In this document: piece after piece, positions 15,824-25,799 of the stretch
Layout: every line of letters begins with the position of its first letter
Position numbering within the stretch: the first letter of the stretch is position 1
Assembly (NCBI GenBank): GCA_963718295.1
Contig: CAVQYV010000005.1
Span: 25,933-89,932, forward strand
Length of the DNA stretch: 64,000 bases
Origin: an uncultured Methylomirabilota bacterium
GTDB lineage: Bacteria; Methylomirabilota; Methylomirabilia; CAVQYV01
Direction: 5' to 3'
Position numbers and translations under genes: made by a program
The notes under the pieces: model-generated
Database searches by the model: none
What the model saw: the letters and a program-made list of their open reading frames with translations, nothing else
What the model was told of the DNA's origin: nothing

Positions 15824-15844
15824 GGGTACACAAAAAAGACCCTG

Positions 15845-15998
15845 AACTCCGACCCGGCAACTCCTACAGCACTTGGTGCCATGGAGGCTGGGCGGTAGGG
15901 CTCATCTGGAAACGGGTGCGCCTCCCGTGCTTGGAAAGGAGTTCGAGTAGCAGCCGTGATCGGCCGGCGTGAGACTCATCTCCGTCGGCCTTCTTTTT
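15845..15998 (+). ncRNA. Candidate structured RNA, copy 1 (riboswitch-like leader or sRNA). A ~100-nt conserved domain is followed by an intrinsic terminator (8-bp G/C stem plus TTCTTTTT).
   Basis: ~90% identical to 17836-17940. The predicted helices (aactcct/aggagtt, agcac/gtgct, ggaggc/gcctcc) are preserved in copy 2 with G-U compensating changes. The terminator stem ggccggcg...cgtcggcc also co-varies between the copies. Confidence 0.45.
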
Positions 15999-16211: not shown

Positions 16212-17609
16212 ATGAAAAGAGCCAGATTGCTATCGATGATCGGTTTTGCGTTACTTGCGATGGGAATTGCGGCTGCCATTGCCTGGTCAGCCTACAGTTC
16301 CCATCAGAATGATGAGGATATTGCCAAGTTTCTGCAAGTTTATCCCTTTGCTCGCTCCACCAAGCTGGATGATTGCTCCCTTTGCCACCCGGGCGGAACC
16401 CTGAGTGGTAAGAGTTACGGAAGTTGCGATTATTGCCACGTCGCCTATGGGCTCAAGCCTCCTCATGGGCCAGTTCCTTTGAATCCCTATGGATTGGCTT
16501 ACAAGGATGCAGGGCGAAGCGTAGAGGCCATCCGCAGCATCGAGAGCGCCGACTCAGACGGAGATACCTTCGGCAACCTCGCTGAAATACAGGCCCTCGC
16601 TTTTCCGGGGGATCCCCGAGATTATCCGGGATTGGTTGCTGCCACTGCCGTATCTTTGAATCCAAAGCAGATCGAGCAACTCCCTCGTCACCAACAGTTT
16701 CTTTTCTTGAATGCCTCCAAATCCCAGGATTTCTATGCACAATATGGGGGGGTCAAGGTTGAAGACATCTTGAACAAGGTGCGTATTGCCCGGGGGGCAA
16801 CCCAGATTACCGTCTTTGCCCCGGATGGCTTTTCCAAAACCTTCCCCATCGACGCACCCGATCCCCAAATCCCTCCCAATATCAGCTACGACGTCTCGGG
16901 CCCTTATCCCAAGGGGGCCTACTACGGGGAATTGAATTTCGTGGATTATCCTTTGTCGCCGGTCTATCCGACGGGAAAGAAGATCCCCGATGAGCTCCGT
17001 TTGATCCTCGCTTATCAGAGGGATGGCAAGCCATTGAGCGTAGGCAAGCTGGTGCCAGATTCGAGGAATCCGGCAAGATTGGTGCTGGAGGGAGAGGGGC
17101 CTTACCGTCTGGTAAATCCCCAGAAGATAGCCGGAAGTCCTGATCGTCCGTCTACCTCTACTCCCGTCGGCGACGGCTGGGACTACGATCCCAACAAGGA
17201 CCACAACGCAGGCTCTTCGGTTCGCAGCGTGACGGCAATCCGGGTGGAGCCTCTTCCGAAAGGGACCACTGATTTCAGCTGGACGGAGGGGGGATGGAAC
17301 CTCGTAGATCAAGGCAGAGTGGTGATTTATGGGGCCATCGACCCCGTCAAGTATCCCATCAGGGGATCGATTTTGGACCCCAAAGGAAATCCGGTGGCTG
17401 GTGTCCAGATCTCCTTTGCTTTGGCCTCCATGAGCCAGGTGGGGATGGCTACCTCAGGGGCTGATGGGAAGTTCTGGAAAGATCTGCCCCAAGGGCAATA
17501 TGTCGTCGCTCCCATCAAAGTTGGATACATCTTCAAGCCTGACGCGGTACGAATCGACCTCTCCCATGGGGCAGACAGAATAGACTTCAAGGCCTATCCT
17601 GTCCCGTAA
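16212..17609 (+). CDS. Secreted diheme c-type cytochrome domain protein with a C-terminal carboxypeptidase-regulatory-like (transthyretin-fold) domain.
   Basis: Signal peptide. Two CxxCH motifs (CSLCH, CDYCH). C-terminal GADGKFWKDLPQGQYVV, typical of CarbopepD_reg. The middle region is weakly reminiscent of a sulfite-oxidase-family Moco domain (uncertain). Confidence 0.65.
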   Translation: MKRARLLSMIGFALLAMGIAAAIAWSAYSSHQNDEDIAKFLQVYPFARSTKLDDCSLCHPGGTLSGKSYGSCDYCHVAYGLKPPHGPVPLNPYGLAYKDAGRSVEAIRSIESADSDGDTFGNLAEIQALAFPGDPRDYPGLVAATAVSLNPKQIEQLPRHQQFLFLNASKSQDFYAQYGGVKVEDILNKVRIARGATQITVFAPDGFSKTFPIDAPDPQIPPNISYDVSGPYPKGAYYGELNFVDYPLSPVYPTGKKIPDELRLILAYQRDGKPLSVGKLVPDSRNPARLVLEGEGPYRLVNPQKIAGSPDRPSTSTPVGDGWDYDPNKDHNAGSSVRSVTAIRVEPLPKGTTDFSWTEGGWNLVDQGRVVIYGAIDPVKYPIRGSILDPKGNPVAGVQISFALASMSQVGMATSGADGKFWKDLPQGQYVVAPIKVGYIFKPDAVRIDLSHGADRIDFKAYPVP

Positions 17610-17821: not shown

Positions 17822-17835
17822 TGGACAAATATCGA

Positions 17836-17988
17836 AACTCCGACCCGGCAATTCCTAAAGCACCCGGTGCCATGGATGCCGGGCGGTAGGGCTCATCTGG
17901 AAACGGATGCGCCTCCCGTGCTTGGAAAGGAGTTCGAGTGGCAGCTCAGATTGGCCGACGTGGGGCTCAACTCCGTTGGCCTTTTTTG
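17836..17988 (+). ncRNA. Candidate structured RNA, copy 2 (paralog of 15845-15998), with its own intrinsic terminator (ggccgacg...cgttggcc plus TTTTTT).
   Basis: See copy 1. It is followed by ~240 nt of divergent leader and then the porin gene. Confidence 0.45.
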
Positions 17989-18226
17989 CTGTTACTCAGG
18001 TGCGGCCCGCAGCTGACACCCCCAGAGAATCCCTTCCCCTCTCCTTCCCAGCCCGGCCCTTTATCCTCCCGGCAAGAGAGCTACCCAGCTCTCTTCCGCC
18101 CATCCAGGCCTACGGCCTTAATTAACAAGAAAGGAGGGATGCCAAAGAGGAAAGAAAAACGGGCAGGGAATATCGTTTCAGAACCTTGACCTTTTGCCCC
18201 TAACAAGTGAGAGAAAGGAGTCTCTT

Positions 18227-19783
18227 ATGAAAGGCATCCGAGGCACCCTCATCGCAATCATTGCCTTGGCCCTTCTCTTCTTCCTCCCCGGCTCGGGATT
18301 CGCGGCGGAAAAGTCTCTGGCCGACATCCTCAAGGAAAAGGGGATCCTCACCGAGGAAGAATACCAACAAGTCAAGGAGTTGGAGGAATCCCAGAAGGCG
18401 GGAGAGGCCAAAAAGGCAGAAGAGGCGACCAAGCAGGCAGAGGAAGCAACCAAGCAGGCAGAAGAGGCGACCAAGCAGGCCGAAGAGGCAACCAAGAAGG
18501 CAGAAGAGCTGGCCAAGAAGGCGGCGGCCGAGAAACCCGCCCCCGTGGTTGCCGGCTACAAGAAAGGGTTCTTCATTCAGACCCCGGATGAGAAGTACAA
18601 GCTGGTCTTCAACGGATACGTCCGGGGCATGCTTGAGCTTTACGAGAACAACACCTCCCAGGACAACCAATTCGATATCAACCGGGCCCGCCTGAACCTC
18701 AAAGGATATTATGGGAAGTACTGGATGGGGGAGGTATCGGCAGAGCTCACCACCGCCAGCGATAGCAGATTCCTCAAGTACGCCTATATCAATAACAGCT
18801 ATCTCCCCTACTTGCAGGCTCGGGTCGGACAGTTCAAGGCCCCCTTCAGCCGGGAATATCTGATCACCCTGGCCGATGTGGAGACCATCATGCGGGCCAT
18901 GATCACCGATGCCGGCGGAACCTTACCCAAGTATGACATCGGTGCCATGCTGTGGAGCCCTAACGTCTTCAACGGGCTGCTCTGGTATGGAGCGGGAATC
19001 TTCAATGGCAACGGGGCCAATAATTTCGATTCCAACGATGACATGGATTTCATTGGCCGCCTGGTCGTGGCCCCCTTTGCCCCCACCCAGATCTCCGCTT
19101 TGAAGGGCCTGGAATTCGGGGGTTCCGTGCAAACTGGAAGGCAGACCCCTAACCAGAGCTATTCGCCCAGGCTCCCCACCAATTGGTCCCTATTCGGGAA
19201 CAACAAAACCAGCTTCAGTTACCGCGGACAGCGGGACCGCTACGCCCTGGAGGCATCCTACAAGTGGGGTCCCCTCACCCTGCGGGGGGAATGGATCTAC
19301 CAGCGCCTGGAGCGGGAGAATCAGGTCAGGGTCGATCCGACTACCAATGCCATCAGCTCCTCGGGAGAGCTGATGGATGCCCCGGATCTGATCTCCTGGG
19401 GCTGGTACGTCCTGGGCAGCTATTTTGTCTGGGGGAATCAGGATAAAGGCATCCAACTGGTAGCCCGCTACGAGCAGTTCGATGTGGATGATGATCCAGC
19501 CGCCGAGAAGTACCGTAAGGCCAATCCCATGGCGGAGAACTCGGTCACCAACCCCTGGGGCAATGACCTCAACATCAGGGGAAATACGGCGGATGTCCTG
19601 ACTCTGGGCATCAACTATTTCCCCTATCCCAATGTCCGATTGGCCTTCAACTGGTTCTATCAGACCCTCGACAACACGTACACCACCGATAAGATCAAGC
19701 ACAACAACGATGGAGGTGAGTTCTTCACCGGTGGAGGGGGAGCCATGAATTCCTTCTGGCTCATGGCCCAGGTGAAGTGGTAA
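18227..19783 (+). CDS. Phosphate/anion-selective porin of the OprO/OprP family, with an N-terminal coiled-coil heptad-repeat region.
   Basis: GGAG RBS. Signal peptide MKGIRGTLIAIIALALLFFLPGSGFA. Four copies of (AEEATKQ). A long beta-barrel region with a C-terminal aromatic residue (…AQVKW). Confidence 0.7.
   Translation: MKGIRGTLIAIIALALLFFLPGSGFAAEKSLADILKEKGILTEEEYQQVKELEESQKAGEAKKAEEATKQAEEATKQAEEATKQAEEATKKAEELAKKAAAEKPAPVVAGYKKGFFIQTPDEKYKLVFNGYVRGMLELYENNTSQDNQFDINRARLNLKGYYGKYWMGEVSAELTTASDSRFLKYAYINNSYLPYLQARVGQFKAPFSREYLITLADVETIMRAMITDAGGTLPKYDIGAMLWSPNVFNGLLWYGAGIFNGNGANNFDSNDDMDFIGRLVVAPFAPTQISALKGLEFGGSVQTGRQTPNQSYSPRLPTNWSLFGNNKTSFSYRGQRDRYALEASYKWGPLTLRGEWIYQRLERENQVRVDPTTNAISSSGELMDAPDLISWGWYVLGSYFVWGNQDKGIQLVARYEQFDVDDDPAAEKYRKANPMAENSVTNPWGNDLNIRGNTADVLTLGINYFPYPNVRLAFNWFYQTLDNTYTTDKIKHNNDGGEFFTGGGGAMNSFWLMAQVKW
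18416..18520 (+). repeat. Tandem 21-nt repeat (about 5 units, gcagaagaggcgaccaagcag) encoding EEATKQA heptads inside the porin gene.
   Basis: Read from the sequence. Confidence 0.75.
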
Positions 19784-19845
19784 GGGGAAGGATTGCCACG
19801 AATTGAGGCTGCACAGTCCCATCTGAATTCATGGAGAGAGAGGGT

Positions 19846-20720
19846 ATGCTTCGAGACACCGGGAATATCTTGAAAGTGGGGTATCTGCTGTTGCCCATAT
19901 GCTTCTGGCTGGTCCTGCCTGCCTTGGTGCAGGCCCAGGGCCAATATGACGGGGCCTACGGGAGTGGCGCGAATCCTTTCATCCTGGCCACCGGCAGCCC
20001 GGGGGAATTGGGACTGCTGAAGGCGCTGGGAGAGGCCTACGCCACGAAGGAGAATGCTACGCTCCTCTGGAAGAAGGCGGGCTCGGGGGAAGCCCTGAAA
20101 CTGCTGAAAGAAAAAAGGTGGACGCCATCATGGTCCACGATCCTGATGGGGAGAAGAAGGCCATTGCGGAGGGATGGGCGGTGGGGCGCACCCTGATCGG
20201 ATCCAACGAGTTCTTCATCGTGGGTCCGGTCGGCGACCCTGCTGGCATCAGCCAGGCCAAGTCTGCCGCACAGGTCTACCAGCGAATTGCAGCAAGTCGT
20301 TCCAAATTCTTCTCCCGAGGGGATCATTCGGGAACCCACAAGAAGGAATTGGCGATCTGGAAGAAGGCGGGGATCGAACCCCAAGGTGAGTGGTACCTAA
20401 TTGCGGGCGGATTTATGAGGGCAACCCTGAAACGAGCCAATGATGAACAAGGATATTTCATGACCGATAGCAGCACCTGGATCATGGAAAAGGGCAATTT
20501 GCCCGGCCTGAAGGTCCTGTTCAGGGGAGACAAGTTCTTGGTGAACACCTATCACGCCCTCTGCCAGCCGCCAAAGGCGACTCCGGGCGCTCCATGGGCT
20601 GCTGAATTCATTGAGTTCGTGGCCTCAGCGGATGGGCAGGAGATCATCCGCACTTACGGGAAGGAGGACTTCAAAGAGGCACTTTACAACGACGCCGTCT
20701 ATGCCAAGCAATACGAATGA
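19846..20720 (+). pseudogene. tupA: Tungstate ABC transporter substrate-binding protein TupA (copy 1). A frameshift sits in an A6 run near 20112-20117.
   Basis: Two ORFs, 19831-20196 and 20118-20720, together align over the full length with the downstream tupA paralog (LLKALGEAY...GSGEALKL / VDAIMVHDPD...). Signal peptide present. Confidence 0.65.
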
Positions 20721-20739: not shown

Positions 20740-21588
20740 ATGAGAACTCACCAATGGAGATTTATTCTCCTCGCGGTTCTTTCGTTGTTGCTGGTCTTCT
20801 CTCTTCCGGCCTTTGCCCAGGAGAGATTAAAGCTCGCGACCACGACCAGCACGGAAAATACCGGGTTACTAAAGGCCCTGCTTCCCCCATTTGAAGAGAA
20901 GAATCATTGTAAGGTGGATGTAATCGCCGTGGGATCTGGGCAATCCATCAAGCTGGGCGAACAGGGAGACGTGGATGTCGTCCTGGCTCATGCCCCGGAT
21001 CTGGAAGAGAAATTCATGAAGGACGGCTTCGGGGTGAATCGCCGCTATGTCATGTATAATGACTTCATCATTGTCGGTCCCCCGGAGGATCCGGCGCAGA
21101 TCAAAGGCCTGAAAGAGGCCAAGGTGGCCTTCAAGAGGATCGCCGACACCCAGTCTTCCTTCATCTCCCGGGGAGACAAATCGGGGACCCATGTCAAGGA
21201 GCTCGCGATTTGGAAGGCCGCAGGGATCAAGGTGGAAGGCATGAAGGGGAAATGGTATCTGGAGGCGGGCAAGGGAATGGGAGAGGTCTTGAATATGGCC
21301 CATGAGAAAAAGGCCTATACCCTTGCCGATCGAGGGACCTACCTCGCCTATCAGGATAAGACCAGCTCGGTCATCCTATGTGAGGGAGACCCGATGCTCT
21401 TCAATCCCTATCACATCATGGCGGTGAACCCGGCCAAGTTCCCCCATGTGAAATTTGAATTGGCCACCAAGCTGGTCGAATGGGTCACCTCCCCCGCGGG
21501 ACAGAAGATCATTCGAGAGTTCAAGGACAAGAAGGGAAATCCTCTATTCGTCCCCACCGCCGAGGTTAAAGGGACAGGCACCCATTGA
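20740..21588 (+). CDS. tupA: Tungstate ABC transporter substrate-binding protein TupA (copy 2, intact).
   Basis: AGGAG RBS 6 nt upstream. Signal peptide. TupA-like motifs TTTSTENTGLL, IAVGSGQSIKLGEQGDVDVVLAH, YNDFIIVGP. Confidence 0.8.
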   Translation: MRTHQWRFILLAVLSLLLVFSLPAFAQERLKLATTTSTENTGLLKALLPPFEEKNHCKVDVIAVGSGQSIKLGEQGDVDVVLAHAPDLEEKFMKDGFGVNRRYVMYNDFIIVGPPEDPAQIKGLKEAKVAFKRIADTQSSFISRGDKSGTHVKELAIWKAAGIKVEGMKGKWYLEAGKGMGEVLNMAHEKKAYTLADRGTYLAYQDKTSSVILCEGDPMLFNPYHIMAVNPAKFPHVKFELATKLVEWVTSPAGQKIIREFKDKKGNPLFVPTAEVKGTGTH

Positions 21589-22043
21589 TCGCATAGTGCC
21601 CCCCAATCCCCTGGCTGGTGGGCGAGGTCAAGGGGCGCGGCACAAGTAGACCCTCTATCGCCTCGGGAGAAGCCCCGTCCCGGGGCAGGGGGCTTAATTG
21701 TCAAGGTAGTTCAGCCCTGCCCTTCACCTCCGAGGGCGGGCCGCCTTTCCGCCTGTACTCTATTCTGCCTTGAAGGATCACCCCGAGTATCGGCTGGTAT
21801 TCGGGGTGATCCCCTATCCTCCCGACACCTCTATTAATAGGATCTTTATGTTCATTATGTTTATGTCCATTCTCTATGCTCTCTCATTCACCTCGTCAGA
21901 GCCCAAGCAGTTGCCCGCCCCACGAAAAGGACTTCCTTGGGAAGAGATTATGATGTAATATGCAAGGAAGAGTATATCCGCTGCTTAGTGCCATATCTCA
22001 AATGGCGTAACATCCATTTCTGCCTCCCGCGGAGAATCAGAGC

Positions 22044-22772
22044 ATGCAATTCTACATCGGCTTTGATGACACAGATACCGTCGATTCCGACCGTGGTACG
22101 GGAAAATTGGCTCGCTGGTTTGAGGGCCAACTGCCTCAGGCCTGCCGCATGTGGGGTGTCGTTCGCCAACAACTCTTGATGGATGATTCCATTCCCTACA
22201 CCTCTCACAATAGCTCGGCCTGTGTCGTCGTGGAAGCCCCCAACATGGACATCATGAATGAGTTGCTTGCCAGGGCGATCGATCATATTGAGCGGCATTC
22301 CTTGCCGGGGAGCGATCCGGGGTTGTGCTTGAGCCATGAAGGCCATCCCTCATTGTCTGAATTGATCCACTTTGGACGAGCGTGCGCCACCAGGGTGGTT
22401 ACCCAAAAAGATGCCCTTCGAGCCGCTAACGGGGTTCATCTCTCGGGCCATGGGGGTACCAATGACGGCATCATAGGGGCTGCTGCGGCCGTCGGTCTAA
22501 CGGCCTACGGATGGGGTGGCAGATTCATTGAGTTCGGAAAATTGCGGGGTTTTCCTGAGCAGGTCTATGTATCAGATCTGGAAGGGGCGGGGATCGCGGT
22601 GGTCTCCATGGATCGGGACGCCCGAGTTCCGGGTCCGGAGGATGTGGTCAAGACCAATGGCTGGCTGCGCCCCCGGCTTTGGGGAGGGAGCCCGGGATTG
22701 CCGGTGACATCCAGAGGTGAAAACCTTTGGGAGACCTTGGGAGAGAAGAAAAGGAAGGAAAAGGAAACATAG
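22044..22772 (+). CDS. Conserved hypothetical protein, 242 aa (N-terminal IGFDDTD motif and a Gly-rich GHGGTNDGIIGAAAAVG segment). Family not recognized.
   Basis: Long ORF in operon position between tupA and the MoSto-like gene. No identifiable domain from the sequence alone. Confidence 0.5.
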   Translation: MQFYIGFDDTDTVDSDRGTGKLARWFEGQLPQACRMWGVVRQQLLMDDSIPYTSHNSSACVVVEAPNMDIMNELLARAIDHIERHSLPGSDPGLCLSHEGHPSLSELIHFGRACATRVVTQKDALRAANGVHLSGHGGTNDGIIGAAAAVGLTAYGWGGRFIEFGKLRGFPEQVYVSDLEGAGIAVVSMDRDARVPGPEDVVKTNGWLRPRLWGGSPGLPVTSRGENLWETLGEKKRKEKET

Positions 22773-22783
22773 GAGGAATTGAA

Positions 22784-23011
22784 ATGGCTGGGAAGATCTT
22801 TTATCGAGAGAGAGGAAAGGTGGGCGAGGGGGAGAAGAAGCCGCGGTTCAAGTTAGTGGCCGTGGCAGATGTCAATCTAAAGGTCTATGGAAAGCACCTT
22901 CGCAGAAGCGAGCTCGAGCAGATCGCAAAGGGTGTCGGCGCTGATTTGATACTGCTCTCTGGCGGCGAAGGGAAATACGAAAAAGAGGAAGAGGTGGAGG
23001 TCGCGGACTGA
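22784..23011 (+). CDS. Small hypothetical protein, 75 aa.
   Basis: Strong AGGAGG RBS 4 nt upstream of the ATG. Sequence MAGKIFYRERGKVGEGEKKPRFKLVAVADVNLKVYGKHL. Family not recognized. Confidence 0.4.
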   Translation: MAGKIFYRERGKVGEGEKKPRFKLVAVADVNLKVYGKHLRRSELEQIAKGVGADLILLSGGEGKYEKEEEVEVAD

Positions 23012-23080
23012 GGTCAAGCAGCCTCTTGCGGCTGTTGGCCCTTCCTTACAACCCGTGAGATCCGAATAGGAGTCCATTCG

Positions 23081-23911
23081 ATGGCTTTAGTGCGCGAACG
23101 CGACGGGCGCCGCCTGCATGTCAAAAGCAAGTTGATGGGAGAGAGTCTGGTCAGCAAATCATTCGTTGAGGGGTTAGAAATAGCCCCTCAACAGCGTCTT
23201 TTCCCGGATGTGAATATCCTCAAGGTAGGAGGGCAATCCATTTGTGACCGCGGGGTGAAGGCGGTCCCCGATGTGATTCAAGAGATCGTTGCCAATAAAG
23301 GGGAGCACAAGATGCTGGTGACCACCGGGGGTGGGACGCGGAGCCGCCACATCTATTCCATCGGGCTGGAGCTGGGCATGCCCACCGGGATCATTGCCAA
23401 ATTTGGAAGTTCGGTCTCGGAACAGAACGCCCTCCTCATCAGCACGCTCCTCTCCCCCTGGGGAGGAATCAAGATCGGCCACGACGAGATCGTCAAGCTC
23501 CCCACTTACTTTGCCCAGGGCTGTATTCCGGTCACCCACGGCATGCCTCCCTACGACTTTTTTGCCATTCCGCCCGAAAAGGGACGGATCCCCGTCCATC
23601 GAACCGATGTGGGCACATTGCTCTTGGCCGATCTGATCGGTGCCAGAAGCTGCATCTTCATAAAGGACGAGAAGGGACTTTACACGGACGATCCCAAAAA
23701 GAACCCCAAAGTGGAATTCATCGCTGAGATTGGGGCCAAGGAGCTTCTGCGCAGAGGTCTGGACGATCTGATCATCGAACGGCCCTGCCTGGAGATCCTT
23801 CAGAATAGCCAGGTAATCACCCGGATTTACATCATCAACGGTCTCGAGAAAGGGAATATCACCCGAGCCCTCCAGGGCGAAAATGTAGGGACCATCATTT
23901 ACAAAGAATAG
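23081..23911 (+). CDS. Amino-acid-kinase-family protein resembling the molybdenum/tungsten storage protein subunits MosA/MosB (UMP-kinase fold).
   Basis: Motifs LKVGGQSICDRG, VTTGGGTRSRHIYSIG, GSSVSEQNA, and C-terminal NGLEKGNITRALQGENVGTII. It is ~276 aa, the same size as MoSto subunits. AGGAG RBS. It is embedded between tupA and tupBC. Confidence 0.65.
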   Translation: MALVRERDGRRLHVKSKLMGESLVSKSFVEGLEIAPQQRLFPDVNILKVGGQSICDRGVKAVPDVIQEIVANKGEHKMLVTTGGGTRSRHIYSIGLELGMPTGIIAKFGSSVSEQNALLISTLLSPWGGIKIGHDEIVKLPTYFAQGCIPVTHGMPPYDFFAIPPEKGRIPVHRTDVGTLLLADLIGARSCIFIKDEKGLYTDDPKKNPKVEFIAEIGAKELLRRGLDDLIIERPCLEILQNSQVITRIYIINGLEKGNITRALQGENVGTIIYKE

Positions 23912-24092
23912 TGGGCGACCCGAACCATTTCCTCTAAAGGCCTTGGGTCCATGAGGAATGGTCGATAGGGTATTGTGGGAAACGACAATGCCTCCCGTGT
24001 TTGGAAAGGGTGAAGACGTGCTGAGTAGAATGCCAGTGCCTGATCCAACGAGGCCACTGGCATTTGTTTCTTGCCCCAACTGAGGAATACAG

Positions 24093-24782
24093 GTGGACTT
24101 CATCATAGAGGCTATCGTTACGTCGTTTCGACTCATCATCACCTTGAATCCTGAGGTGTTTGAGGTGGTCTACTTTACTCTCAAAGTATCCTTCTGGGGG
24201 ACCCTGCTCTCGACGCTCTTCGGGGTTCCCATCGGGTTCCTCATAGGGATCAGGGAATTCCCGGGGAAAGGGATGGTGCGCACCATCCTCAACACCCTCA
24301 TGGCGCTTCCCACTGTGGTGGTAGGCCTCACGGTATATGCTTTCATCTCCCGACAGGGGCCGTTGGGACAATGGGGGCTTCTCTTCAGCCCCAAGGCGGT
24401 CATCATTGGCCAGTGGGTGTTGGCTGCTCCATTGATTACCGCCCTGACTCTATCCGCCACCCAGTCCGTTGATCCGCGGGTTGCCCTTTCAGCCCAGACC
24501 CTGGGGGCCAGCCGCAGTCAAGAGGCAATCGCGGTCCTCAAAGAAGCCAAGTTTGCCCTTATGGCTGCCATAACGGCGGGATTCGGCCGAGTCATTGCGG
24601 AAGTGGGGGCTGCGATGATGTTGGGCGGCAACATCCGCGGTTATACCCGAACCATGACCACGGCCATCGCCCTGGAATCCAGCAAGGGGGAATTTGGCTT
24701 TGGTTTGGCCTTGGGCCTTATCCTGATGGCTCTGGCCTTAGCCATCAACTTCTTCTTCACCTATCTTCAGGGGAGGAAGTGA
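24093..24782 (+). CDS. tupB: Tungstate ABC transporter permease TupB.
   Basis: GTG start with a GAGGAA RBS. Multiple TM helices and the ABC permease EAA-like region (AIALESSKGEFGFGLALG). Confidence 0.8.
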   Translation: MDFIIEAIVTSFRLIITLNPEVFEVVYFTLKVSFWGTLLSTLFGVPIGFLIGIREFPGKGMVRTILNTLMALPTVVVGLTVYAFISRQGPLGQWGLLFSPKAVIIGQWVLAAPLITALTLSATQSVDPRVALSAQTLGASRSQEAIAVLKEAKFALMAAITAGFGRVIAEVGAAMMLGGNIRGYTRTMTTAIALESSKGEFGFGLALGLILMALALAINFFFTYLQGRK

Positions 24783-25799
24783 ATGGTCTCGAATTCTTCC
24801 GGCGGTTTTGAACTTGAAGTCCACCAAATCAAGCACCTCTATAATGATAGAGCCGCACTGGATATCGCTGAGCTTTCCTTCCAGAAGGGAAAGATCTATG
24901 GTTTAGCGGGATCCAATGGGGCAGGCAAGAGCACCCTGATGCTCATTCTCAGCCTCCTTCTCAAGCCAAGCTCGGGCCGTGTCCTTTTCCGGGGGGTGGA
25001 GGTCACCGATGGAAATCGGAGGGATCTGAGGGGGCGGATCAGTATGCTTCTCCAGGATCCCCTCCTCTTCCGCAATACGGTCGCCAGGAACGTGGAGTAC
25101 GGCCTGAGGATTCGGCATATCGCGAGAACGGAGAGGAAGAAAAGGGTCATGAAGAGTTTGGAAATGTTGGGGTTGGAAGATTTCGCCGACCGAAAGGCGA
25201 GGGAGCTCTCTGGAGGGGAGGCCCAGAGGGTCGCCATCGCCCGCGCCCTGGCGATCCAACCGGAAATCCTTCTTCTCGACGAGCTTACCGCCAATGTGGA
25301 TGAGGGCAATGTCAAGATTGTGGAGGAGATCGTCCGATCCTTGAGTAGGGAATCGGGCGCCACCGTGATCTTTTCGACCCATGACAAAGATCAGGCCCAC
25401 CGACTGGCCGATGAGACGATCATCCTCTTGGAAGGAAGGATCACTCCCTTTTCCCCGGAGAACATCTTCAAAGGGAAGACTATCCGGGATGGAGAAGGGA
25501 CCTGGTTCGACACGGGCAGGATCAGGGTCTTCCTGCCCAATGGAGAAGAGGCCAGGGCCATCTCTATAAGCCCCGAGGAAATCGTGGTTTCTCTGTCCCC
25601 GTTCAACTCCAGTGCCCAAAACCGGGTGGAAGGCACAATTGAGAGTATGGTCGTCGACGGGGACGGCGTGAGGCTCTTGATAAATGCCCCGGAGCAGTTC
25701 CACGTGCTCATCACCAAGAAATCCTTGTGCGAGTTGAACCTCAATGTGGGGATGCGGGTTTATCTCACCTTCAAGAGCACCGCAGTAAAGGTATTCTGA
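24783..25799 (+). CDS. tupC: Tungstate ABC transporter ATP-binding protein TupC with a C-terminal TOBE/Mop molybdate-binding domain.
   Basis: Walker A GSNGAGKST. Signature LSGGEAQRV. Walker B LLLDE. The C-terminal ~110 aa have a TOBE-like fold (RVEGTIESMVVDGDGVRLLI...). The start overlaps the tupB stop. Confidence 0.85.
   Translation: MVSNSSGGFELEVHQIKHLYNDRAALDIAELSFQKGKIYGLAGSNGAGKSTLMLILSLLLKPSSGRVLFRGVEVTDGNRRDLRGRISMLLQDPLLFRNTVARNVEYGLRIRHIARTERKKRVMKSLEMLGLEDFADRKARELSGGEAQRVAIARALAIQPEILLLDELTANVDEGNVKIVEEIVRSLSRESGATVIFSTHDKDQAHRLADETIILLEGRITPFSPENIFKGKTIRDGEGTWFDTGRIRVFLPNGEEARAISISPEEIVVSLSPFNSSAQNRVEGTIESMVVDGDGVRLLINAPEQFHVLITKKSLCELNLNVGMRVYLTFKSTAVKVF

Follow-up and report, generated by a model that had tools for sequence, protein, structure and literature searches.

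A single-gene MoSto-family protein and two conserved partners at a tungstate-uptake locus point to a tungsten-storage system in anaerobic bacteria

Three genes between tupA and tupBC

In a stretch of 64,000 nucleotides from an uncultured Methylomirabilota bacterium (contig CAVQYV010000005.1; hereafter the window), three plus-strand genes lie between tupA, encoding a periplasmic tungstate-binding protein, and tupBC, encoding an ABC permease and ATPase (Table 1). They encode a 242-aa protein (P242), a 75-aa protein (P75), and a 276-aa protein related to the molybdenum storage protein MoSto of Azotobacter vinelandii (the MoSto-like protein). A preliminary description, made from the sequence alone, had placed a trio of genes between tupA and tupBC, and all three open reading frames (ORFs) were present on this strand, as were the motifs it had claimed for the 276-aa product. 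The ribosome-binding site of the P75 gene, GGAGGA, overlaps the stop codon of P242; a mechanical ORF list offers an alternative TTG start at 22727 that gives 94 aa, and the 75-aa gene is also called in the source annotation. Given gaps of 11 nt between P242 and P75 and of 69 nt between P75 and the MoSto-like gene (intergenic gaps in the module are about 11 nt), the three genes likely form one operon, in agreement with the co-transcription proposed earlier.

Table 1. Features of the window around the three-gene cassette, in order of position
Feature	Position	Strand	Details
Moco/Wco riboswitch 1	15835-15957		RF01055, P3-less
GEGP-motif dihaem protein gene	16212-17609		CarboxypepD_reg domain; under its own P3-less Moco/Wco riboswitch and terminator
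Moco/Wco riboswitch 2	17826-17948	+	RF01055, 76 bits, P3-less; precedes the porin and tupA genes
Terminator-like hairpin and U run of riboswitch 2	about 17953-17987		-27.9 kcal/mol, z -3.6
Porin_O_P anion-selective porin gene	18194-19783	+	PF07396, 2.8e-19; first gene after riboswitch 2
First tupA paralog	19831-20720	+	both pieces match the PBP_like_2 and TupA models
Intact tupA, periplasmic tungstate-binding protein	20740-21588	+	NF041772, 2.6e-73, 246.7 bits (cut-off 400); PBP_like_2, 2.8e-50; TTTS motif
Spacer between tupA and the cassette	21589-22043		456 bp, non-coding
P242 gene	22044-22772	+	242 aa; N-terminus MQFYIGFDDTD
P75 gene	22784-23011	+	75 aa from ATG
MoSto-like gene	23081-23911	+	276 aa; motifs LKVGGQS, TTGGGTRSRHIYSIG, and NGLEKGNITRALQGENVGTII
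Moco/Wco riboswitch 3	23906-24026	+	RF01055, 63.6 bits, E 2.4e-14, P3-less; between the MoSto-like gene and tupB
Terminator platform of riboswitch 3	24028-24074	+	14-bp hairpin, then UUUGUUUCUU; -24.7 kcal/mol, z -4.4
tupB, ABC permease	24093-24782	+	NF041773, 1.5e-64; NF038017, 239 bits, above cut-off 100
tupC, ABC ATPase with C-terminal TOBE	24783-25799	+	ABC_tran, 6e-35; TOBE, 1.3e-6; best NCBIfam families WtpC and TupC

MoSto membership of the 276-aa protein

Profile searches, alignment, and a tree together showed that the 276-aa protein is a member of the MoSto family. In a Pfam search, residues 45-253 matched the AA_kinase family (PF00696, 5.9e-22), and phmmer against PDB sequences aligned the protein with A. 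vinelandii MosB (subunit beta) over 258 residues without a gap (226 bits, 4.4e-66) and with MosA (subunit alpha) at 147 bits (8e-42), against 39 bits (3.8e-9) for the best UMP kinase (PyrH). Sequence identity was 43% to MosB, 32% to MosA, and 20% to Escherichia coli PyrH. When aligned with MosA and MosB, the protein had every indel that distinguishes MoSto from E. coli PyrH and kept the 12-residue MoSto insertion (GMPPY-(12 aa)-HRTD), whereas both PyrH loops, GEALQGTEGFGIDA after KLSGE and GGGNLFRGAGL after GGG, and the UMP motif TGNPFFTTD were missing. It is alike to A. vinelandii MoSto (PDB 2OGX, 4F6T, and 6GU5) in its amino-acid-kinase fold and length (276 aa, compared with 276 aa for MosA and 270 aa for MosB), and has in common with it the nucleotide-site motifs KxGG, TGGG-R-RH, RTD-G, and DG-Y as well as the gate methionine of MosB. 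In a rough neighbor-joining tree, whose root is insecure with its one outgroup, the MoSto family was set apart from PyrH, and the single-gene proteins of both locus types described below formed their own clade with 100% bootstrap, sister to MosB in 80%. The preliminary description had proposed both the resemblance to MoSto and the match in subunit length, and had named PyrH and isopentenyl-phosphate kinases as the competing affiliation; the HMM search and alignment it had suggested place the protein with MoSto, and in sequence it is nearer to MosA and MosB than to UMP, isopentenyl-phosphate, glutamate, or aspartate kinases.

Database labels tell two stories, homologs being called 'molybdenum storage protein' by JGI pipelines and 'uridine kinase' by NCBI. 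The latter name, along with weak matches to PyrH models, would favor a nucleotide kinase paralog (a uridine or UMP kinase) whose adjacency to transport genes is incidental. Yet those matches fall far below the PyrH equivalog cut-offs (TIGR02075, 30.7 versus 243.9 bits; TIGR02076, 52.5 versus 158 bits), identity to E. coli PyrH is low with both UMP-site loops gone, and synteny around the gene is kept in more than 120 loci. The 'uridine kinase' label is moreover a systematic mislabel, since it also sits on true MosB beside MosA in Azospirillum. A nucleotide kinase at this position is thus highly improbable. In RefSeq/NCBI, the label was seen on MosB-type proteins adjoining 'molybdenum storage protein subunit alpha' (L086, 6980-8663, on Azospirillum plasmid NZ_CP032327.1) and in records of metagenome-assembled genomes.

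A conserved module of three genes

Homologs of all three proteins are numerous, the MoSto-like family comprising 3854 protein clusters, the P242 family 3199, and the P75 family 890, with P242 relatives in at least 582 species genomes. Two sets of related loci were compared. One was seeded with P242 and consisted of the best 80 loci of a genome scan plus five contigs fetched earlier (85 loci); the scan used 15 P242 sequences as seed, an 81-sequence alignment being too divergent for the purpose. The other was seeded with the MoSto-like protein and held 80 metagenome loci. Nearly all P242-seeded loci belonged to Thermodesulfobacteriota, and carriers included Syntrophus (S. buswellii DM-2), Smithella, Syntrophorhabdus, Syntrophobacteraceae, and Desulfobacteraceae. 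In the genome of S. buswellii DM-2 (NZ_CP175563.1), the module is found some 8.0-9.8 kb into region 617563-634279. The gene order of the trio recurred in well over a hundred independent contigs (>120 loci), and chance adjacency was ruled out by these synteny counts. In 46 of the 85 P242-seeded loci, the P242, P75, and MoSto-like genes followed one another on one strand (type 1), while 24 had P242, a PadR-like gene, P75, and then a convergent MoSto-like gene whose product was about 51% identical (type 2). The contig ended before the MoSto-like position in three further loci, and the MoSto-like gene was absent despite room for it in the remaining 12. Conversely, among MoSto-seeded loci with room, P75 immediately preceded the MoSto-like gene in 74 of 75 and P242 lay upstream in 53 of 55. 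Canonical mosAB loci differ in having neither P75 nor the TiaS-type kinase, here usually present, that P242 represents (see below).

Since the cassette was found before the tup genes, after them, or apart from them in other genomes, it is a portable (mobile) three-gene module and not a fixed tup gene. The membership of the tup operon claimed in the preliminary description therefore holds in the window, where the trio sits between tupA and tupBC, but does not extend to other genomes, in which its placement differs. In one type-2 locus (L013, 5242-9148), a PadR-like regulator is encoded between P242 and P75, and upstream lie a sulfate-permease-like transporter and an integrase-like plus TOBE regulator, which we take to be of the TunR type.

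A single MoSto-like gene was detected by tblastn in the whole window, and the 70 P242-seeded loci that carried the gene likewise had one each, as did all 80 MoSto-seeded loci, so that the lone subunit gene noted earlier proved to be the rule at related loci. In A. vinelandii, by contrast, an adjacent alpha/beta pair forms an (alpha-beta)3 hexamer, and Azospirillum plasmids, serving as a control, carried adjacent mosB-mosA without P242 or P75. PyrH, which has the fold in common, is a homo-hexamer, and encoding by one gene matches this ancestral homo-hexameric state. Residue frequencies were determined from 147 MoSto-like homologs. Met155 of the MoSto-like protein aligns with MosB Met149 and was invariant in all 124 type-1 sequences, and the N-terminal arm motif H13-V-x-S16-x-L18 is common to the MoSto-like protein and MosA, not MosB. 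Because the gate residue matches MosB and the arm matches MosA, the alignment suggests that one polypeptide may combine a MosB-type core and gate with a MosA-type arm and so do both jobs. Brünle et al. reportedly described in 2019 the roles of MosB Met149 as a gate, of the beta-subunit ATP, and of the alpha-subunit N-terminal arm.

P75 is very basic, and F6, R8, R10, K18, P20, H38, E43, and L44 were invariant in alignments. No Pfam family matched it even at E values up to 10, bar a chance hit to DUF4055, the TOBE domain (PF03459) was not found in the Pfam search, and no sequence match was found in the PDB. Kinship with the MoSto family was considered and rejected (hhalign probability 0.7%). 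The 75-aa partner is a conserved orphan, in line with the candidate novel accessory protein proposed earlier. Its AlphaFold2 (AF2) monomer model was poor, with a predicted local distance difference test score (pLDDT) of 62, as would suit a protein that acquires its fold upon binding a partner. Given its place directly upstream of the MoSto-like gene in all but one of the loci with room, P75, which was seen in no other company than that of the MoSto-like gene, looks dedicated to the MoSto-like protein and is probably a subunit or adaptor of it. The P75 gene was present in two copies in loci L027, L049, L073, and L076.

P242 had been described as a protein of unknown family, an assignment that no longer stands. 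It has two parts, a TiaS-type kinase (TCKD) domain at the N-terminus, about 158 aa long, and a small beta-rich domain at the C-terminus. Over residues 2-153, the profile of the P242 family matched TiaS sequences (about 1e-15), the AF2 model (pLDDT 95.5) matched the TiaS kinase fold in Foldseek at 5e-10, and PF22641 (TiaS_TCKD) was matched by 45 of 81 family members; P242 itself had no Pfam match of its own, nor did its C-terminal domain. Across an alignment of 81 diverse members (A1), D8, D9, T10, T19, N56, G156, and G159 were invariant; the DDTD motif and catalytic threonine of TCKD are present, T19 aligning with Thr18 of TiaS. P242 was nevertheless rejected as a true TiaS, the archaeal tRNA-Ile2 agmatidine synthetase (PDB 3AMT). 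Unlike the latter, it is bacterial, has 242 rather than about 420 aa, carries its own small beta domain where TiaS has its tRNA-holding ferredoxin-like, OB, and zinc-ribbon domains, and is encoded in a context of metal import, not translation. The full-length TiaS model covered P242 at positions 1-153 of 422 with 15.7 bits against a cut-off of 600, and about 160 aa could be superposed. TiaS cleaves ATP to AMP and pyrophosphate and phosphorylates an oxygen. It has been described as a dual-specificity kinase, for RNA and for protein (PMC11938285). Fusion proteins containing the P242 domain were considered as a Rosetta-stone link, none being useful; one PadR + PBP_like + P242 call looks mis-called.

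The accessory status claimed for the two partner genes stands insofar as both are conserved with the MoSto-like gene, but P242 is not exclusive to it, as relatives adjoin other importers. In two loci (L011 and L068), P242 relatives were next to tupABC alone. A distant relative (~37% identity; L167, 315-7973) was accompanied by a tungsten aldehyde oxidoreductase (AOR), a PBP_like regulator, a 69-aa TOBE protein, and tupABC, with the TOBE-type store occupying the place that the MoSto-like gene would have. At another locus (L084, 5789-11324), a P242 relative was flanked on one side by a TonB-dependent receptor and on the other by an ECF-type importer composed of a fused double ABC ATPase and CbiQ, and tandem ABC-ATPase-like matches were next to P242 in L014, L016, L020, L037, L039, and L056; the P242 relatives of L084 and these six loci were about 63-66% identical and lacked MoSto and P75. 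Further P242 relatives were found beside Peripla_BP_2 or ECF-S-like genes.

This distribution bears on whether the module might be an enzyme system in which the MoSto-like protein, as an oxyanion kinase, and the P242 kinase activate or select tungstate to be inserted into the pyranopterin cofactor, for example by discriminating tungsten from molybdenum, and which holds no bulk polyoxotungstate. P242 relatives that lack a MoSto neighbor but keep company with AOR, a TOBE protein, and tupABC, others beside tupABC alone, and the absence of the covalent cluster ligands of MosA (see below) all speak for such a system, and MoSto itself has been proposed to be a molybdate kinase. Against it, the 43% identity to MosB extends full-length and gap-free with the cage-specific insertion kept, the molybdenum cofactor (Moco) biosynthesis genes moaB, moeA, and mobA were neither in the module nor beside it in the loci examined, and similarity to HPPK was no more than that to generic ferredoxin-like folds. 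We consider a cofactor-directed enzyme system without a store unlikely.

Tungsten context, regulation, and proposed function

For the genes flanking the cassette in the window, the TupA and TupB families were far ahead of ModB, and tup genes occurred within 8 kb in 26 of the 46 type-1 loci. The window also contained three matches to the riboswitch family of Moco and the tungsten cofactor (Wco; RF01055), with scores of 76, 68.4, and 63.6 bits (gathering score, 36). The P3 model positions were deleted in all three, and each was followed by a hairpin and U run. The P3-less subtype of this riboswitch correlates with tungsten-cofactor metabolism (Regulski et al., PMC2408646), and by their lack of P3 the window riboswitches would be of the tungsten-cofactor type. 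Because TupABC and three riboswitches of this type surround the module, the cargo is most likely tungstate. The characterized protein, A. vinelandii MoSto, takes up and stores tungsten too (PMC6448029, PMC4504029).

A MoSto-type store could alternatively hold molybdate, or both metals without preference. The only characterized member of the family stores molybdenum, homologs bear the JGI label 'molybdenum storage protein', a sulfate-permease-like transporter and TOBE-type regulators flank one type-2 locus, and the Tup matches lie below equivalog cut-offs. Set against these points are the best-matching families of the flanking genes, which are TupA and TupB well ahead of ModB, and the uniformly P3-less riboswitches, as well as the heavy dependence of the host taxa on tungstoenzymes. 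A molybdate or nonselective store is, in our estimation, distinctly unlikely, and tungstate remains the preferred cargo.

Other genes of the window fit into this context. The porin encoded first after riboswitch 2 is the probable outer-membrane entry for oxyanions or tungstate; it bears N-terminal EEATKQA repeats. The first tupA paralog is split into two frames at an A6 run near 20111-20116, which could reflect a frameshift, an assembly error, or a pseudogene, and related loci have two intact tupA genes in tandem. Loci L005, L029, L031, L036, L048, L052, and L075 have homologs of the GEGP-motif dihaem protein no farther than 8 kb from the module, and there are hints that this protein takes part in tungsten or molybdenum acquisition.

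The aptamer of riboswitch 3 starts 6 nt ahead of the stop of the MoSto-like gene. As no promoter fits between the two, transcripts of the tupBC leader must start inside the cassette or farther upstream. Riboswitch 3 could accordingly be pictured as an internal attenuator: with ample tungsten cofactor, transcription would stop after the storage genes and before tupBC, and when the cofactor is scarce, readthrough would proceed from the storage genes into tupBC. A promoter search detected nothing sigma-70-like in the spacer that separates tupA from the cassette, and no RNA family matched there even at E values up to 1; a weak hairpin (21660-21686) and an AT-rich stretch (near 21830-21870) were present. 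A 12-bp hairpin with a U-rich run (23165-23202) lies within the 5' part of the MoSto-like ORF, and such sites are no more frequent in the region than chance predicts. In L002 and L005, two type-1 loci that lack such a riboswitch, an HTH_17 + PBP_like regulator is encoded between the cassette and tupA.

Taken as a whole, we lean, with moderate confidence, toward a reading in which the MoSto-like protein is a third MoSto lineage, made from one gene instead of a mosA/mosB pair, and functions as a single-subunit, ATP-driven tungstate store, served by a dedicated partner, P75, and by an ATP-using accessory, P242. The MoSto-like protein would assemble into a homo-hexamer, as in its UMP-kinase ancestors, each subunit contributing a MosB-type catalytic core and gate together with a MosA-type N-terminal arm, and ATP would drive the oxyanion into the internal cavity of the oligomer. 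P242, as a TiaS-type ATP-using kinase with an intact catalytic motif, probably serves in the hand-over of tungstate, either loading the store or mobilizing it. A more specific proposal is that the P242 kinase acts on the metal oxyanion or the storage complex, not on RNA, and loads or unlocks the store through TiaS chemistry, that P75 caps or nucleates a homo-hexameric polyoxotungstate cage, and that the whole represents the ancestral form of MoSto; in this full form the proposal is rather doubtful. Were it true, a three-component, ATP-driven tungsten bank would be widespread in syntrophic and sulfate-reducing anaerobes.

Several observations weigh against the single-subunit tungstate store. 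The MosA cluster ligands Glu129, His156, and, as we presume, His140 on the threefold axis correspond to G133, D159, and Y143 of the MoSto-like protein, and these three residues were kept as such in 121-124 of the 124 type-1 sequences. Both alpha-Glu129 and alpha-His156 bind polyoxometalate clusters covalently (PMC4504029). The gate position is occupied by Ile or Val in type-2 proteins, and cage formation and metal binding by the MoSto-like protein are predictions. The counts of single genes apply per locus, and a second MoSto paralog may lie elsewhere in carrier genomes. P242 may have a role unrelated to storage, because it occurs without a MoSto-like gene in 12 of 85 loci despite room and beside ECF or Peripla_BP_2 importers. 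As to the cargo, about 40% of type-1 loci had no tup gene within 8 kb, and the TupA, TupB, and TupC matches in the window, though to the best families, were below NCBIfam equivalog cut-offs. Finally, searches of 17 related loci, eight other type-1 loci among them, turned up no Moco riboswitch, and the riboswitch logic is therefore specific to this organism.

The single-subunit store differs from other proposed tungstate buffers. Tub, a TOBE protein first characterized in 2025 (PMC11980592), has been named a tungsten storage protein, a name also used for it elsewhere (PMC13328260). Like the Tub/Mop TOBE proteins, the MoSto-like protein is cytoplasmic, encoded next to tupABC, and a proposed tungstate buffer, but the folds and capacities are unrelated: a Tub hexamer binds 8 oxyanions independently of ATP, while MoSto accommodates about 100 metal atoms in an ATP-dependent manner. 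P75 is similar to Tub/Mop in size but has no TOBE signature. The setting differs from that of A. vinelandii MoSto as well, with tungstate uptake and strict anaerobes here and nitrogenase and aerobic diazotrophs there. MoSto has been called unique and regarded as a peculiarity of aerobic nitrogen fixers with "no known homologs" (PMC6448029), and mosAB are counted among the rarest and latest-evolving molybdenum genes (PMC13144720). In the open-access literature searched, no paper was found on a single-gene MoSto, its partners, or a link to tungstate uptake.

The trio thus points to a hitherto undescribed means of tungsten storage that is widespread among anaerobic bacteria, its MoSto-type protein being common, as a single gene, in anaerobic Thermodesulfobacteriota and tied to tungstate uptake. 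With S. buswellii DM-2 as a cultured carrier with a complete genome, the question is directly testable. If the protein is a tungsten store, it would account for the supply of this scarce metal to the tungstoenzymes of syntrophs and sulfate reducers, the evolutionary account of MoSto would have to be revised, and P242 would provide the first metal-handling role for the TiaS kinase fold, which is otherwise one of archaeal tRNA modification.

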